Source of the DNA: a virus
Lineage: Duplodnaviria > Heunggongvirae > Uroviricota > Caudoviricetes
Strand: one strand, 5' to 3'
Length of the DNA: 62,864 nucleotides
IMG/VR virus record: IMGVR_UViG_2645728048_000034
Span: 1-62,864 of that record
Part shown: piece by piece, positions 1 through 56,847 of the stretch
Layout: each line of letters starts with the position of its first letter
Numbering within the stretch: the first letter of the stretch is position 1
The notes under the pieces: generated by a model
The model's database searches: none
What the model saw: the letters and a program-made list of their open reading frames with translations, nothing else
What the model was told of the DNA's origin: nothing
Position numbers and translations under genes: made by a program

Positions 1-342
1 ATGATGAAAAAAAGTATTCTGGCGTTTCTGTTACTCACCAGTTCTGCAGCGGCGCTGGCTGCACCGCAGGTGATTACCGTCAGCCGTTTTGAAGTGGGTA
101 AAGACAAATGGGCGTTTAATCGCGAAGAGGTGATGCTGACTTGCCGACCGGGTAATGCTTTGTATGTCATCAACCCAAGTACCCTCGTGCAGTATCCTTT
201 AAACGATATCGCACAAAAGGAAGTTGCCAGTGGGAAGACTAAAGCCCAACCCATTTCGGTGATTCAGATTGATGATCCTAACAATCCCGGCGAAAAAATG
301 AGTCTGGCACCGTTTATAGAACGAGCTGAAAAACTCTGTTAA
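1..342 (+). CDS. yebY: YebY (DUF2511) periplasmic protein, chromosomal
   Basis: 113-aa ORF with N-terminal signal peptide; matches E. coli YebY from memory; precedes prophage integrase. Confidence 0.8.
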
Positions 343-414: not shown

Positions 415-500
415 ACATTTCAGCTGATGACCACCACGCTTTTTATTGACCATTTTGCACGCAAACTGGAAAACCTGGCGTCGTCATCTATTCTTAAAGG

Positions 501-603
501 GCAAGGCAACTAAGCCTGCATTAATGCCAACTTTTAGCGCACGGCTCTCTCCCAAGAGCCATTTCCCTGGACCGAATACAGGAATCGTATTCGGTCTTTT
601 TTT
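501..603 (+). ncRNA. sdsR: SdsR/RyeB-like small RNA with intrinsic terminator
   Basis: gcaaggcaactaagcctgcattaatgccaacttttagcgcacggctctc... ending in hairpin accgaatacagga/atcgtattcggtc plus T-run; recalled similarity to enterobacterial SdsR; lies beside yebY as expected. Confidence 0.5.
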
Positions 604-734
604 AATTGTATTTAAAATCAATTAGTTGCAAACGTCTTCCCGAAATTCCCCGAAATTTACTCGAATTTCTGTATTCCGGTCTTTTTTGGTTATATCACAA
701 CCAAAATACATTTAACAATCCATTTACGTTAAAA
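604..734. other. Probable attL region with short direct repeats (cccgaaatt x2, ctcgaattt)
   Basis: Lies between sRNA terminator and integrase 3' end; repeats resemble arm-type Int sites; core not defined. Confidence 0.3.
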
Positions 735-1811
735 TCAGAGTAGTAAGTACGTTTTTTCTCTCTCATCAAGATACATTTTTGTTGTCTTCTCCGATGTGTG
801 GCCAAGTAGACGCTGAGCAAATTCTTCTCCACATGTTTCTTTGTACAATCGTCCAGCCAGACTTCTGATCTCGTGAAAAGTTGGTGGGTTTTCACTGAAC
901 TGGATACCTGTTAATTTTCTGGCTGCGACAAATTTTTTTGTCAGGCCATCCGGGTGAATGCTGCCGTCAGGGCTGTTTTTTCTAATCCCGGCACTGATTA
1001 GATAATCTCCCCGGCTTACCAGGCGGCACTGTTCAACTACTGTACCAAGCCGTAGACCAGCGACAGGAAGGCTGAGTGACAGGGGGATAGCAATCATCAT
1101 TCCTGTCTTAATTTGCCTGATGTGGAGACGATCATCATAAATATCACTAAAGCGCATATTCGTTATGTCTTCGCGACGTTGTCCTGTTACAAGGGCTAAA
1201 TCCATAGCTAATGGGAACCATGCCGGAAGTTGATCTGCTGCCTCCCTGATGCAGTTGTATGTCTTTAGTTTCAGTCGTTCTCTTGTAACTACTATTTTCG
1301 GTGCTCTTGTTGGCGTTACTGGATTTTGAGATATACGTCCATCAACAATGGCCTCACGAAACATATCAGACAACACAGAACGCATTGATCCTGCCATTGT
1401 GTTTTTCCCTCCTTCAATCCACAAATCAAGAAACTCGGCAATATGGCGAGTGGTTATTTCTGTCAGTAAAATTTCCCCCAATTTTTCTTTTATTGTCTCC
1501 AGTTGATTTACCCGAATTTTATAAGTATTTCTGGACACTTTTCTCCTTATAAGAATCGTTTTGTAACGTTCAATCCAGTCTGCCATAGTAAATGAGTCGA
1601 ACCCTTTAAGCTTTTCAATTAAGGCAGCAGGAGAGTAGTTTTTGTATATATAATGATTTGCTTCAATTGCCTGCGCTACTGCATCTCTTCTTGAAATTTT
1701 ACCTAGTGTAAATTCTTCTTTCGTCAGAGGGTTGCGCCAGTAATATGCTTTGTCCCTCCTTCGATATGTTAAGTTTTTAGGCAAATTGGGATCGTATTTT
1801 TTCCGCTGCAT
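735..1811 (-). CDS. int: Tyrosine recombinase (lambda-family integrase)
   Basis: 358 aa; R...HxxR...Y catalytic signature ([22 protein letters not shown]); first prophage gene next to chromosome. Confidence 0.85.
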
Positions 1812-2064
1812 GTTTTAACTTCTCCAGTAACGGACTGTCTCTCCCTTGTCGCCCATTAGGCTGATGGTGTGTTATATCGGTATCAACCTTATTTGGGTTG
1901 ATATAGAAAGCCTCCGGAACCACCCTGTAACTCCTCCCGTGTAGTTCAGGTGCAGGATAAATGTTTCCATTCCTTGCCCATCGTCTCAGCGTTGATATTG
2001 ATGGTGGGTTATCCGGATATCTGAGTTTTCCCCACGTTTTGAGTGTCACAAGATTCATTGCCAT
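1777..2064 (-). CDS. Excisionase-like protein (XisR/YdaQ-like)
   Basis: 95-aa ORF overlapping int start; typical int-xis arrangement; recalled similarity to Rac YdaQ. Confidence 0.55.
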   Translation of the reverse strand: MAMNLVTLKTWGKLRYPDNPPSISTLRRWARNGNIYPAPELHGRSYRVVPEAFYINPNKVDTDITHHQPNGRQGRDSPLLEKLKHAAEKIRSQFA

Positions 2065-2164: not shown

Positions 2165-2365
2165 TCACGAGGACAGAAGTTTCTCGCAATTAAAATTTAT
2201 CAGCTTTACTTTCTGCTCTCTGGAAACGCCTGCTTCTTTTTTCCCTGAGAGCATTTTTTCGCATTCTGATTTCGTTAATTTAGATTTTGAATATCTTGTC
2301 CAGTTAGTAGGAGTGCCACCTTCCTTTTCAATAGTGGCAGTAATTTTATACATGAACACCTCCAT
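2165..2365 (-). CDS. YdaC-like small protein (DUF1187)
   Basis: Internal Met start chosen (MEVFMYKITAT...); Rac-like position upstream of lar; start uncertain. Confidence 0.4.
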   Translation of the reverse strand: MEVFMYKITATIEKEGGTPTNWTRYSKSKLTKSECEKMLSGKKEAGVSREQKVKLINFNCEKLLSS

Positions 2366-6915: not shown

Positions 6916-7323
6916 AATTATCTCCATTTTTACAAATGAATTTTGTCGATGCGGTGCCTGGTGCCTCCAGGTGACGTTAACCAGTTAACAATTAACGCCG
7001 GATAATCCACCCATAACACTGATGCTTTTAACTGTGCCGCGTGCGCTTAGCCGCATTCACCGCATCACAAAATTCACTTTAAAAAGGGGCGGCAGGGCAG
7101 CCACGGAGTAGAACTGATGCCGCCAAAGACTACACATAGCAATGTCGTTATTTACAACCGGAGGCGCACTCCCACCATTTAAATTTAACAGACAAGACCG
7201 ACTCTTTATGGATATCGGAAATGCGCCTTCGTGTTGTGCCCGGTTTTATTTCACCACCTCCGGGCTTTGGTGGTTTCTGCTATACCCCTACAGCGAGAAT
7301 ATTGAATTAATCCAAATAATGGA

Positions 7324-14708: not shown

Positions 14709-15055
14709 GAAAAGTCCTTTTGAACATATAGGAATATATTAGAGCATGTATGTGTGCAATGCATAAAAGGAAAAGCTACCGCAAGGCGACTCCACCCACA
14801 GATAGCTCTTAACTGATTGTTTGTAAAAAATAATACATTAATTATCTTCTGTGTAAAGAGGGAAACAGCCTTAGGGTAAGGGACACGAGTTGGAGGAGGA
14901 TTGGTGAAATTTGCGTTGAGGATAAAACGATTTGCGGGAAAAGGATAGTTAAGTAGAATAGCTGCGGGTGCTTGAGGCTGTCTGCCTCGGGCATGAACAC
15001 CAACGGCAGATAGATAAAAGCCCCACCCGACTATAAATCGAAGTGAGGCCCCTAT

Positions 15056-15268
15056 ATGCTCGTCACATATAGATTGCCTCTTACGGACCGAAAGGTCAAG
15101 GAGAAGCAGGCTATGAAGCAGCAAAAGGCGATGTTAGTCGCCCTGATCGTCATCTGTTTAACCGTCATAGTGACGGCACTGGTAACGAGGAAAGACCTCT
15201 GCGAGGTACGAATCCGAACCGGCCAGACGGAGGTCGCTGTCTTCACAGCTTACGAACCTGAGGAGTAA
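15056..15268 (+). CDS. mok-like overlapping reading frame of hok locus
   Basis: 70-aa frame starting 57 nt upstream of and in frame with hok. Confidence 0.3.
   Translation: MLVTYRLPLTDRKVKEKQAMKQQKAMLVALIVICLTVIVTALVTRKDLCEVRIRTGQTEVAVFTAYEPEE
15113..15268 (+). CDS. hokD: Hok/Gef-family type I toxin (HokD/RelF-like)
   Basis: MKQQKAMLVALIVICLTVIVTALVTRKDLCEVRIRTGQTEVAVFTAYEPEE; RBS aggaga. Confidence 0.85.
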   Translation: MKQQKAMLVALIVICLTVIVTALVTRKDLCEVRIRTGQTEVAVFTAYEPEE

Positions 15269-17300: not shown

Positions 17301-17325
17301 CTCAATCTGTTATCCGGGGCTATAT
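17297..17325 (+). promoter_or_regulatory. Candidate late promoter (PR'-like)
   Basis: TTGACT, 17-nt spacer, CTATAT just after Q stop. Confidence 0.35.
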
Positions 17326-17387
17326 TCCTCACGCGCCAGCAAAATCTGGCGTCGGGATTAGGAACCCCGGATAGAGACCGCGACAGA

Positions 17388-17412
17388 CACACGCCGCGAG
17401 CGTGTTTTTTAT
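17388..17412 (+). terminator. tR'-like intrinsic terminator downstream of late promoter
   Basis: cacacgc-cgcga-gcgtgt stem-loop plus tttttatt. Confidence 0.5.
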
Positions 17413-17573
17413 TGTCGTATGCACGCGCACATCTGAATTATGGTGGGGCGTATGGGGGAGCTGAAAAGCTCGCCGGTTGGTTTCCCGGTAGTTCCTAACC
17501 CTGTACGTCTCACCACCCGATGATTAGGAACCTGACGGTGGTGATGGTTTAGAAACCACCAGAGGGCGTCATT

Positions 17574-38515: not shown

Positions 38516-39192
38516 GCAAATACACCGAACTAATCACGAACTACCACGCCACTAAACCTAAATTTCTTGCGCATGTTGATCTGATGACCCGGCCGCTTAT
38601 TGATGTTGCGGCTGCCACCAGAGGGCTGATTACTGCATTTGATATTGACTCTGCGGTTGGTGTGCAACTTGACATTCTGGGATTGTGGATCGGACGTAGC
38701 CGTGTTGTCAGCCAGCCTATCTCAGGTGTCTATTTCAGCTGGGATACCGACGGGCTTGGATATGATCAGGGGGTATGGCAGGGACCATACGATCCTGATT
38801 CCGGATACATGTACCTCAGCGATGAAACTTATCGTGTCATTCTTAAAGCGAAGATTGCGATTAATAACTGGGATGGACGGAATGATTCTCTTCCGGCAAT
38901 TCTTGACGCTGCAACAGCAGGATCCGGGCTGCGAATGCAGATAGTCGATAACCAGGACATGACGATATCGGTCTGGGTCTTTCCTGATACTGATATTTCA
39001 GATGTATCGCGTGAGTTAATTGCGGCAATTAAACAGGGGTATCTCACAGTAAAAGCCGCCGGGGTATGGGCGGGTGGCATTGAAACACCTTCGGTGGAAA
39101 CCCCATCGGAAGGCTCAAAATTTTTTGGTTTTGATATGGATAACGAATTCATCAGTGGTTTTGATGTAGGAGCATGGGGAGTATTACTCTGA
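38512..39192 (+). CDS. Tail protein I-like (baseplate wedge)
   Basis: 226 aa following J-like. Confidence 0.5.
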
Positions 39193-40067
39193 TGGCGAAA
39201 AATGACTTTAAAGCGTTTGCAACGGATCGAAATGCCAATGTTATGTCGCAGGAGGAATGGGAAGCGTTGCCTGCGCTTTTATCCGGATTTACAGCAGGGA
39301 AAGCATCCAGTGCGCAGGTGAACAAAGCCATTCGACAGGCCAGCTTTATTGCTGCAGCTCTGGCCCAGTTTGTAAGTGACAAAACGCAACGGGATGTGCT
39401 TGATAATGGTGATCTGCCCGGTTTTGTTGAATTGCTTGGATCGGGGTTTGCTGTTGAATACCTGAGCCGCAAAAATCCGTTTGGCGATATCAAATCGGAC
39501 GGCACAGTGAAAACGGCTCTCGAAAACCTTGGTTTGGGAGAAGGCTCTGCATTACCGGTTGGGGTGCCTGTTCCGTGGCCTTCAGCCACTCCGCCAACAG
39601 GCTGGCTGAAATGCAATGGTGCGGCTTTTTCTGCTGAAGAATACCCGGAACTGGCAAAGGCTTACCCGACCAATAAATTGCCTGATTTACGCGGTGAATT
39701 TATTCGTGGCTGGGATGATGGACGTGGAGTGGATGCGGGGCGAGCCTTGCTAAGTCTTCAGGATGACTCTTTTGAAGCTCACAGGCATGAGTCCTTTTTT
39801 TACGCGGGTATTTCACGCAATGAAATACCATTAAAAAATCTTCCAAGTTCAGACGAGATGCTGACTTTAAGTTCTACAACTAATGCCTTGTCCCCGGACG
39901 GTATTGATGCCACTAATTCGTTAATTGGTAATGATGATTACAACTGTCTGATTGAAGGAAATAAAAATAACAAACGAACAGCGACGGGGTTGAGTACCAG
40001 TATTGTCGGTGCAGCAGAGACACGCCCACGTAATATTTCATTTAATTACATTGTGAGGGCTGCATGA
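39174..40067 (+). CDS. Tail fibre protein (tail-collar domain)
   Basis: 297 aa; collar-type motif [34 protein letters not shown]. Confidence 0.65.
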
Positions 40068-54363: not shown

Positions 54364-56847
54364 ATGTCTGGTTTTTTCCTTGATTTAACCAAGCTTTCGC
54401 CCAGTGTAAATAGCGACACAGCGATTCCACCGCGAGATATATTTACAGCTCTACCGAGCAAAGACACCAAATTTCAATACCCTCGAGATGTGCAATCAGA
54501 GGTCTGGGAAAAATGGTATGAAGCAAGGAGAAGCCCAACCAATGTAATAAAAATGAATACCGGAAGCGGTAAAACTTCAGTTGGGTTAATCATTCTTAAA
54601 AGCTGTATAAATGAAGGAGAAGGTCCCGCTGTATATGTTGTTCCTGACAACTATCTAGTTGAGCAAGTGGTTTTGGAGGCTAATCAACTTGGTATACCTG
54701 TAACTCAGGATGAGAGGTCCCCCAAATTTATTGCAGGTAAAGAAATTTTAGTTACAAATATATTCAAAGTGGTTAATGGACGTTCTGCATTTGGCGTTGG
54801 AGATGATGGACAAAAAATACCAATAGGCTCTATAATAATTGACGATGCTCACGCTTGCCTTTCTTCAATTGAAGAACAATTCTCCATTAGCATTCAAAAA
54901 AATAACCCTGCCTATGATAAATTATTCAGAATTTTTGAAAATTCACTAATGACACAAGCTGGTGCAAAAACACTAGAGATAAAATCCGGCGATAGAAATG
55001 CTTATGTGAGAGTTCCATTTTGGAAATGGCAAGAAAGCATAAATGATATAATGACAATCTTGTTAGAAAATAAAGACCATGATGACTTGAGTTTCAAATG
55101 GCCATTAATAAAAGACAATCTAATATTATCGAAATGCGTTGTAAGTGCTTCCAAAATAGAGATATCACCTCATTGCATACCAATCCAAATGATCCCAAGC
55201 CTATCAAACGCAAGAAGAAAAATATTCATGACAGCTACTCTTGTCGATGAATCCATTCTAGCGAGCCACTTCGGAATAACGGATGAATCACTCTCTAATC
55301 CGATAACACCAAAAACAATTGGTGATATTGGTGATAGAATGATACTAATGCCTCAGGTTATAAACCCTAGTCTTTCTGATGTAGATATCAAAGCTATGTG
55401 CAAGGAGATATCCTCCAAACATAATGTTGTTGTAATTGTACCATCCGATTACAGAACTAGATTTTGGCAAGATGTTGCAGACAGAATATTAGATAAAAAT
55501 ACAATTTATCAAGGTGTACAAGAATTAAGGACACAACATGTTGGCTTAGTAGTCCTAGTTAATAGATATGATGGTATTGATTTACCAAATACCGCATGTC
55601 GTCTATTAGTAATAGATGGACTTCCTGACGTTCGTAGACTAATAGATAAAGTCTCACAAAGCTTATTGCTTGGAAGCGAAAAAACCAAAGATGAAATTAT
55701 CCAGAAAATTGAACAAGGAATGGGGCGAGGAGTGAGATCAAGCGACGACTTCTGCGGAGTGATCTTACTTGGCAAAGCATTAAATGGCGCTGTTTTCCTT
55801 GGCTCCTCCTTAGAAAGGTTTTCTCCAGCAACGAAAGCACAAATTCAACTTTCACAGCAATTGGTATCGATACTGCCGGATACAACTATTGATTCAATCA
55901 AAGGTGCTCTTGATTATTGTCTGTTACGCAATTCTGACTGGGTCTCAAAAAGCAAAGGTATATTGACTGGCTTAACATTGGAAAATAAGCAGATTGACCA
56001 GCATACTATAAACAAAAGATTGGCATATGACTTAGCATCACGAAATATGTTTCAACAAGCCGCTTTAACTCTAAAAAATGATAGTAGCACAGCTGACAAA
56101 GTTTATAAGGGTTATCTAAAAGAACATGCTGCGGAATATGTAAACTTATATGACAAATCTGAAGCTCAGATATTGCTTCAGTCTGCATCAAACGATAACT
56201 ATCGGGTATTAAAACCACTAATCGGCGTAACATATAATAGACTTAATGGTGCGGCACTTGAACAGGCTAGGGAATGTAGCTCCTATCTCAGAAGTAATTT
56301 TGAATCGGCGAATCAAGTCGTTGTGCATACTAATTCAATAATAGAAAACCTTATTTTCTCCGAGGGCACATCGAATCCCTTCGAAGATGCTATCGAAAAA
56401 GTTGCATATTTGGTCGGTTTTCGTAGCCAACGGCCAGAAAATGATACAGGTAAAGGACCTGACAATTTATGGGCAATGGGAGAAAACAATTATCTAGTAA
56501 TTGAATGCAAAAATGGAGCAACCGCAGAAAGAATAAGTAAGCATGACTGCAATCAGTTAAATGGGTCGGGTGCATGGTTCAGAAACATGTATGATCAAAC
56601 TGCTACCGCCACACCTATAATGATACATCACTCTAACATGCCTGAATATGCCGCAACACTAAACGAAGGGTCTCGAATAATGACCATAAATGATCTTGAA
56701 CGTTTTAAAGCATCTATCCTCAGTTTTATCACGGCCATTTGTACAAGTGATAAACGACACGATGAGATATTTATAAGAGAACAATTGATTACATGTAAAT
56801 TACGTGCATCAGACATAGTTGAAACCTATACGCGAAATCCTCGTTAA
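54364..56847 (+). CDS. SF2 (DExH-like) helicase fused to C-terminal PD-(D/E)xK-like nuclease domain; candidate anti-phage gene
   Basis: 827 aa; Walker A GSGKT (aa 67-71), motif II DDAH (160-163), FMTATL, QGMGRGVR; C-terminal GPD(699-700)...VIECK(714-716); AT-rich; between A and cos. Confidence 0.7.
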   Translation: MSGFFLDLTKLSPSVNSDTAIPPRDIFTALPSKDTKFQYPRDVQSEVWEKWYEARRSPTNVIKMNTGSGKTSVGLIILKSCINEGEGPAVYVVPDNYLVEQVVLEANQLGIPVTQDERSPKFIAGKEILVTNIFKVVNGRSAFGVGDDGQKIPIGSIIIDDAHACLSSIEEQFSISIQKNNPAYDKLFRIFENSLMTQAGAKTLEIKSGDRNAYVRVPFWKWQESINDIMTILLENKDHDDLSFKWPLIKDNLILSKCVVSASKIEISPHCIPIQMIPSLSNARRKIFMTATLVDESILASHFGITDESLSNPITPKTIGDIGDRMILMPQVINPSLSDVDIKAMCKEISSKHNVVVIVPSDYRTRFWQDVADRILDKNTIYQGVQELRTQHVGLVVLVNRYDGIDLPNTACRLLVIDGLPDVRRLIDKVSQSLLLGSEKTKDEIIQKIEQGMGRGVRSSDDFCGVILLGKALNGAVFLGSSLERFSPATKAQIQLSQQLVSILPDTTIDSIKGALDYCLLRNSDWVSKSKGILTGLTLENKQIDQHTINKRLAYDLASRNMFQQAALTLKNDSSTADKVYKGYLKEHAAEYVNLYDKSEAQILLQSASNDNYRVLKPLIGVTYNRLNGAALEQARECSSYLRSNFESANQVVVHTNSIIENLIFSEGTSNPFEDAIEKVAYLVGFRSQRPENDTGKGPDNLWAMGENNYLVIECKNGATAERISKHDCNQLNGSGAWFRNMYDQTATATPIMIHHSNMPEYAATLNEGSRIMTINDLERFKASILSFITAICTSDKRHDEIFIREQLITCKLRASDIVETYTRNPR

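Follow-up and report, generated by a model that had tools for sequence, protein, structure and literature searches.

The stretch of DNA analysed here (the window, 62,864 nucleotides in all) opens with yebY (1-342, plus strand), an open reading frame annotated as such in the matching genomes and in E. coli K-12. It is conserved and always precedes sdsR, the gene for the small RNA SdsR (RyeB), and sdsR has been described as lying invariably downstream of yebY (PMC3333887). In the window sdsR occupies 501-603 on the plus strand, its ends being given by the K-12 annotation and by mapped 5' and 3' ends (PMC6610125). An Rfam scan matched the SdsR_RyeB family (RF00111) at 504-603 on the plus strand with 118.1 bits against a gathering score of 38 (E = 2e-22), and the match spans the full model, positions 1-100. 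SdsR, an Hfq-dependent RNA, belongs to the RpoS regulon and to the core sRNAs of enterobacteria. The K-12 annotation (NC_000913.3) has the order yebY - sdsR/ryeA - pphA, with sdsR at 1923104-1923207 and ryeA at 1923066-1923337. When the two were aligned, the window proved to be the same as K-12 without difference from 330 to 588, including the DNA upstream of the sdsR start site, and only two bases, 589 (G>A) and 598 (C>U), differed between 588 and the end of homology at 604. An earlier, sequence-only reading of this DNA had recognised an sdsR-like sequence beside yebY and had proposed an alignment to the K-12 sdsR/sraC region as a check; both the family match and the K-12 alignment, with identity up to 588 and homology lost after 604, bear this out. 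The same reading had called the sRNA upstream of the integrase gene, which is true in plus-strand coordinates only: because int (735-1811) is on the minus strand, the sRNA lies past its stop codon, that is, downstream.

The sRNA gene ends in an intrinsic terminator (569-603, plus strand) that was recovered by a terminator scan and by folding. It consists of an 11-bp stem (569-597) and, directly after it, TTTTTT (598-603), and agrees with the hairpin that had been suggested at about 568-603. Comparison with K-12 and with a phage attP showed that the 3' arm and the tail of this terminator are phage-derived. The phage bases give an A-U pair for a G.U pair in the stem and a UUUUUUU tail, as against UCUUUUU in K-12. 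We considered that the change at 589 (G>A) stabilises the terminator, but this was dropped, the hairpin energy being -15.3 kcal/mol in the window and K-12 versions alike. As the two bases at 589 do not differ in energy, only the one change in the U tract would be left to affect SdsR, and the UUUUUUU tail might favour termination and Hfq binding. A separate observation concerns the same two positions in the wider family. The phage-derived bases, A at 589 and U at 598, match the Rfam family consensus where K-12 has G and C, and thus the K-12 allele is the unusual one and not the allele of the lysogen.

On the other side of the junction lies the gene for a tyrosine integrase of the lambda type (735-1811, minus strand, 358 aa), which was identified by Pfam and is annotated as an integrase in 228 genomes. 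The protein carries the domains Arm-DNA-bind_1 (PF09003, 28.1 bits against a threshold of 22), Phage_int_M (PF22022) and Phage_integrase (PF00589), and it contains LLGH...KMY and a further 11-residue stretch that match the catalytic motifs of lambda Int. Next to it is an excisionase gene (1777-2064, minus strand), annotated as such and matched by the Pfam family Exc (PF07825, 52.1 bits, E = 6.5e-14).

We defined the attachment site by a four-way comparison that used attL from the window and from PEC399, attB from K-12, attP from the free phage record PP818812.1, and attR from PEC399. PEC399 has a complete related prophage between sdsR and pphA, with pphA restored on the far side, while PP818812.1 has an int region 96.5% identical to that of the window and carries its attP between the last tail gene and int. 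All four sites share the core ACAGGAATCGT[A/G]TTCGGTCT[T/C]TTTTTA, which in the window is located at 578-604, so that attP and attB have 27 bp in common with two mismatches. With the core set off by slashes, attP of the phage record reads TTGACGAAA / ACAGGAATCGTATTCGGTCTTTTTTTA / ATTGTATTT, attR of PEC399 reads TTGACGAAA / ACAGGAATCGTGTTCGGTCTCTTTTTA / TCTGTTAAA, and attB of K-12 reads GGACCGAAT / ACAGGAATCGTGTTCGGTCTCTTTTTA / TCTGTTAAA; attL of PEC399 is the same as that of the window. The comparison places the core at the 3' end of sdsR and not elsewhere, and the unoccupied site in K-12 shares the whole 27-bp block but for the two mismatches. The junction between foreign and host DNA (578-588, with homology ending at 604) falls within the last 27 nt of sdsR and belongs to the sdsR 3'-end hot spot, which has been defined by a junction in the last ~23 bp of ryeB (PMC7380047). 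One side observation from this comparison is that PP818812.1 (locus L005) is titled 'Actinobacillus phage vB_Apl-pPE4', yet its attP core is an enterobacterial sdsR terminator, and the stated Actinobacillus host looks doubtful.

The window holds only one of the two prophage ends. No second copy of the core was found in it, either with phage-type and K-12-type queries allowing up to three mismatches or by BLAST of the K-12 locus, and therefore attR lies outside the window. Searches of the whole window with the K-12 locus likewise found no pphA, no K-12 right flank and no attR, and for this reason the core was defined with the attR of the relative PEC399. Direct repeats across the whole window amounted to chance-level families only.

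The two variable bases of the core allowed us to narrow down the point of strand exchange. In the PEC399 lysogen, attL has both phage-type bases and attR has both K-12-type bases, while at 577 attL is still of the host type. Because the variable bases segregate in this manner, exchange took place within ACAGGAATCGT (578-588), an interval made up of the terminator loop AGGAATC (580-586) and the bases adjacent to it. On either side of this loop, the stem arms CCGAATAC and GTATTCGG form inverted repeats. By analogy with the lambda model and with phages that target tRNA genes, the terminator arms at 572-579 and 587-594 are likely to be core-type Int sites, and the loop is likely to be the 7-bp overlap.

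The DNA from the core to the int stop codon is the int-proximal phage arm of attL (605-734), the equivalent of the lambda P' arm; an identical arm is present in attP of PP818812.1, and homology to K-12 ends at 604. A putative IHF site was located in this arm at 616-628 (plus strand), in the position of lambda H'; it is a perfect match to the IHF consensus AATCAATTAGTTG (WATCAANNNNTTR), of which there are two matches in the 62.8-kb window. It is followed at 639-668 (plus strand) by three tandem repeats with a period of 10-11 bp, candidates for the arm-type Int sites P'1-P'3. Two copies are CCCGAAATT, at 639-647 and 649-657, and the third, CTCGAATTT at 660-668, is degenerate. The sequence CCCGAAATT occurs four times in the window against 0.97 expected, and the two copies in the arm are 10 bp apart. 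Last comes a core-like element, GTATTCCGGTCTTTTTT (671-687, plus strand), which resembles the right half of the core (GTATTCGGTCTTTTTTT).

A search with the single integrase sequence gave two near-identical loci only, hence IMG/VR was scanned for the core itself, and this yielded more than 120 loci. From these and the earlier loci we obtained 64 distinct int-proximal arms, whose integrases are 49-100% identical, and placed them in an ungapped alignment anchored on the core. In this alignment the first 40 bp are mostly free to vary and the spacers are variable. The conserved parts are CAA....TT at +21 to +29 from the core, three CGAAAWT units at +43, +53 and +64, an element like TATTCCGGTCT at +74 to +84, which is the core-like element, and a short block ahead of the int stop codon. 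The same motif, as CCGAAAWT, was found in the int-distal arms of attP and attR at ~115-150 bp from the core. These results suggest that the cccgaaatt repeats are arm-type Int sites, as had been proposed before any comparison was made; the Arm-DNA-binding domain of the integrase and the distal-arm motif point the same way, and this assignment appears well supported because the sequence, the number and the distance from the core are all kept in arms that have otherwise diverged. Int would accordingly be predicted to bind both in the arms and at the core.

We also weighed the possibility that the repeats at 639-668 bind another protein, such as Xis, Fis or a repressor, or that they form a transcription signal at the end of int. 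The repeats do fall in the 3' untranslated region of int, and lambda Xis, too, binds closely spaced direct repeats. However, the Xis sites of lambda are confined to one arm, whereas the motif described here is present in both arms of attP, as is expected of arm-type Int sites, and the arm-binding domain of the integrase needs such sites. Even where the integrases are only 49% identical, the repeats keep their number, their spacing and their position relative to the core, and folding of 604-700 gave no significant RNA structure (z = -0.64). We therefore consider another role for the repeats improbable. In attL of one IMG/VR locus (L066, UViG_2728369554_000022) there is an 84-bp deletion that runs from the core (GTATTCGGTCTTTTT) to the core-like element (GTATTCCGGTCTTTTTT) and takes out the IHF site and all three repeats, and this suggests that the core and the core-like element can recombine with each other.

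The prophage that begins at this junction has an early region of the Rac type, with RalA/ralR, recET and kilR, together with genes for a contractile tail. The Rac prophage of K-12 has the same type of early region, but the window phage differs from it in its integrase and its att site. The RalA antitoxin sRNA (2169-2347, plus strand, 223.8 bits in Rfam) lies opposite ralR and adjoins recT/recE. Rfam also identified DicF (7087-7138, minus strand), sok (14966-15115, plus strand), which has hokD alongside in relatives, and a cluster of isrK, C4 and a1b1 of the kind that controls antirepressors (17320-17520, plus strand).

This prophage ends without an att site and is joined to a P2-like prophage inside a tail-fibre open reading frame (39174-40067). 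The fibre gene is chimeric: its N-terminal part is that of the Rac-like prophage and from ~39525 it is P2-like, the junction being at ~39515-39544. The join is on a crossover site of the hix/cix type (GGCTCTCGAAAACC TT GGTTTGGGAGAAGG), whose left half matches the Rac-like phage and whose right half matches the P2-like phage. Both parental types encode Pin-family invertases, and no invertase gene is present in the window. We had taken the hybrid crossover site as proof of recombination by an invertase, and this was withdrawn, since the combination of constant and variable fibre parts seen in the window is shared by 48 genomes. The whole arrangement of two prophages was found in no complete E. 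coli genome. The fusion could be due to the action of an invertase, to homologous recombination inside the shared cassette, or to an error of assembly.

The P2-like prophage (39525-62864, minus strand) is truncated after the G gene, and the window ends with the stop codon of its integrase. It is without FI, FII, E, T, U, D and ogr, and its sheath, tube, tape-measure and invertase genes are missing. Its closest relative, in strain CH4804, is located between fieF and cpxP, a site that is far from yebY in K-12, and a large rearrangement would have to be assumed if the fusion is real. An 827-aa protein of the DEAD/DEAH-box helicase family is encoded at 54364-56847, between the portal gene and replication gene A of the P2-like prophage; it possibly serves in anti-phage defence, because this is a variable cargo position of P2-like phages.

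From the evidence at the junction we conclude that the left end of the window is very probably the attL of a temperate phage that entered the 3' end of sdsR by lambda-type site-specific integration. The attP of the phage brings in 27 bp that repeat the 3' half of the sdsR terminator. Strands would then be exchanged within the terminator loop and its flanks by Int, probably together with IHF, and the two stem arms would probably act as core-type Int sites in inverted orientation. In the integrated state, sdsR is of host origin as far as the loop, its 3' stem arm and U tail come from the phage, and because the phage copy supplies these, sdsR stays complete. The 130 bp from the core to the int stop codon would serve as an arm made up of the IHF site, the three arm-type Int sites in tandem and the core-like element. 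The promoter and the first ~38 nt of RyeA/SraC would move to attR, tens of kb away, and pphA would be uncoupled from read-through off the sdsR promoter.

The window taken by itself has no attR, and its prophage is truncated and fused to a P2-like one, as might be expected of an old, fixed remnant that came to lie next to sdsR by chance and not through integration into it. This explanation we regard as barely credible in view of the other genomes: a free phage record has the matching attP, PEC399 has both attL and attR with pphA restored, and occupancy of the site is polymorphic, at 4% of genomes in many lineages and hosts. Site-specific integration also agrees with the make-up of the module. 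The integrase domains, a common core with reciprocal attL and attR (the latter from PEC399) and the adjacent excisionase are all those of a lambda-type system, and the repeats found in both arms, with a putative IHF site between the core and the arm sites, are predicted from sequence and conservation to complete it.

While sdsR is rebuilt, the overlapping antisense gene is not. When K-12 ryeA was mapped onto the window, its 3' part was found to be retained at 370-604 on the minus strand, ~235 of 272 nt. Rfam recognised SraC_RyeA (RF00101) over the full model at 463-607 (minus strand) with 179.1 bits against a gathering score of 37 (E = 2.5e-41), a model that covers only the conserved part overlapping sdsR. 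The RyeA start site of K-12 lies 38 nt beyond the 3' end of sdsR, and its -10 box is farther out; this box, TATGGT, was mapped by mutation and lies within the oligonucleotide PM_RyeAF according to Choi et al. 2019 (PMC6610125). The flank with the K-12 5' end and the -10 TATGGT is absent from the whole window, and in the complete lysogen PEC399 it was found at attR. Because homology to K-12 ends at 604 and the start site and -10 box lie beyond the core, the RyeA promoter and the first ~38 nt have been replaced by phage DNA. The expectation that the antisense SraC/RyeA would be truncated or altered by the insertion was thus correct, the K-12 start and -10 box having given way to the phage arm.

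A sigma-70-like match (TTTGCA, a 16-nt spacer and TACAAT; 605-632, minus strand) points into sdsR in the antisense direction. It is the sole promoter-like match in 340-2400, and since shuffled sequences give 4.8 matches on average, it is weak by itself; it also overlaps the IHF consensus. As a candidate replacement promoter, predicted from its sequence, it could drive a shortened RyeA. On this basis integration would be regulatory and not neutral, either through the new promoter at 632-605 or through antisense read-through from int, and the expression of SdsR and int would then be coupled via RNase III cleavage of the duplex. The promoter-like site, which is on the strand of RyeA, does abut the core; int is read from that strand too, and a terminator scan of the minus strand from 735 to 604 found nothing terminator-like. 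Work on related systems is also in favour. In K-12, RyeA transcription is reported to lower SdsR, to block sdsR-pphA read-through and to interfere with expression of both sdsR and pphA (PMC6610125), and lysogeny by the Salmonella phage PhiW104 is reported to alter both RNAs, with RyeA down and RyeB up (PMC7380047, citing Balbontin et al. 2008, J Bacteriol 190:4075). Against it, the match agrees with the consensus at 9 of 12 positions and overlaps a probable IHF site, and in the arm alignment the core-adjacent sequence is poorly conserved among phage families. A regulatory role of this kind seems to us rather unlikely. Displacement of the RyeA promoter may alter the levels of SdsR or RyeA in the window's host.

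It is also possible, and we suggest this tentatively, that the 'empty' site of K-12 is itself a fossil attL, and that one phage after another, on integrating, has provided RyeA/SraC with a new promoter and 5' end. K-12 has 134 bp from sdsR to pphA, and these align, correctly placed and oriented, with the int-proximal arm end and the closing ~17 codons of integrases from one sdsR-targeting family (49-53% identical). The scores are modest, with a Smith-Waterman z of 6.8 against dinucleotide shuffles and an nhmmer E of 0.0014 in 5 kb (locus L001, 1995-2060; NC_000913.3). In this alignment the RyeA -10 box TATGGT coincides with the final codons of the integrase (..ATG GTT TAG). The K-12 flank is ~36 bp shorter than those arms, at the place where three arm repeats would be, and the repeat block is of about this size. 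The identities of the neighbouring genes, pphA, a homologue of the lambda phosphatase, and yebW, annotated as YdfD/YebW family, fit an old prophage remnant. Frohlich et al. (PMC3333887) are our source for SraC being ~35 nt longer in Shigella and Salmonella, which matches the ~36-bp shortfall in K-12. A fossil attL, if true, would account for the conservation of SdsR as against the lack of it in SraC, and it would mean that lysogeny by the window phage re-sets a toxin/antitoxin-like sRNA pair of the host. The idea may already stand in Balbontin et al.

We then looked at how often the site is used. The yebY-sdsR region was present in all of the complete E. coli genomes (5426/5426); the attB region was intact in 5191 of them and split in 235, and the same int junction was found in 228 genomes. 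The sequence-only reading had described the sdsR/sraC locus between yebY and pphA as an insertion hot spot, and such use of the locus has been published for Salmonella. There, the att site of PhiW104 is the last 23 bp of ryeB, as given in a review (PMC7380047) that cites Balbontin et al. 2008. As far as that account goes, PhiW104 and the window phage are alike in having an att site at the 3' end of ryeB/sdsR that is internal to ryeA, with the 5' part of ryeA replaced upon lysogeny. They differ in that the host of the window phage is E. coli and its backbone is Rac-like with a contractile tail, and the effect on RyeA and SdsR was measured for PhiW104 only. We did find a prophage record from Salmonella that shares this core and the layout of the arm, although the integrase DNA of the window is only ~73% identical to that of this relative. 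A Yersinia enterocolitica prophage described in 2025, vB_Yen_24-YE00064, has a 27-bp att between its integrase gene and a YebY-family gene (PMC12653942); it resembles our case in the 27-bp att beside YebY, but belongs to another genus and is another phage, and that paper makes no mention of sdsR.

Compared with lambda, the system has the same arm-binding, core-binding and catalytic domains in Int, an adjacent Xis and the prophage order attL-int-xis. The int-proximal arm of lambda has the layout C'-H'-P'1-P'2-P'3, and the order observed here, core, IHF site, three tandem repeats and int 3' end, is like it. In contrast, the sequences of the core and of the arm sites (CCGAAAWT) are different from those of lambda, there is an extra core-like element beyond the arm sites, and the target is an sRNA terminator hairpin, whereas that of lambda is the gal-bio intergenic attB. 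The phage also resembles the elements that use the 3' ends of tRNA or tmRNA genes for integration (for example P4, P22 and the ssrA islands; PMC3603311). These also carry the 3' end of a structured RNA gene, and because the integrating phage carries such a copy the target gene is rebuilt; the symmetry of the hairpin likewise gives inverted core sites around a 7-nt loop. The difference is that here the targeted sRNA depends on Hfq and is overlapped by an antisense gene, and because of this overlap one of the two RNAs of the sdsR/RyeA pair is not rebuilt.

In the E. coli literature we found no description of an att site at the 3' end of sdsR. The mechanism has been known in Salmonella since 2008, and the E. 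coli case adds a member and leaves the current understanding unchanged. The map of core, IHF site and arm sites for a previously unstudied lambda-like att site may be of use in integration vectors and in the calling of prophage boundaries. With the junction carried by ~4% of complete E. coli genomes, those strains should express the sdsR/RyeA pair differently from K-12, and comparisons of sRNA regulation or of RNA-seq data across strains should take an occupied sdsR site into account.
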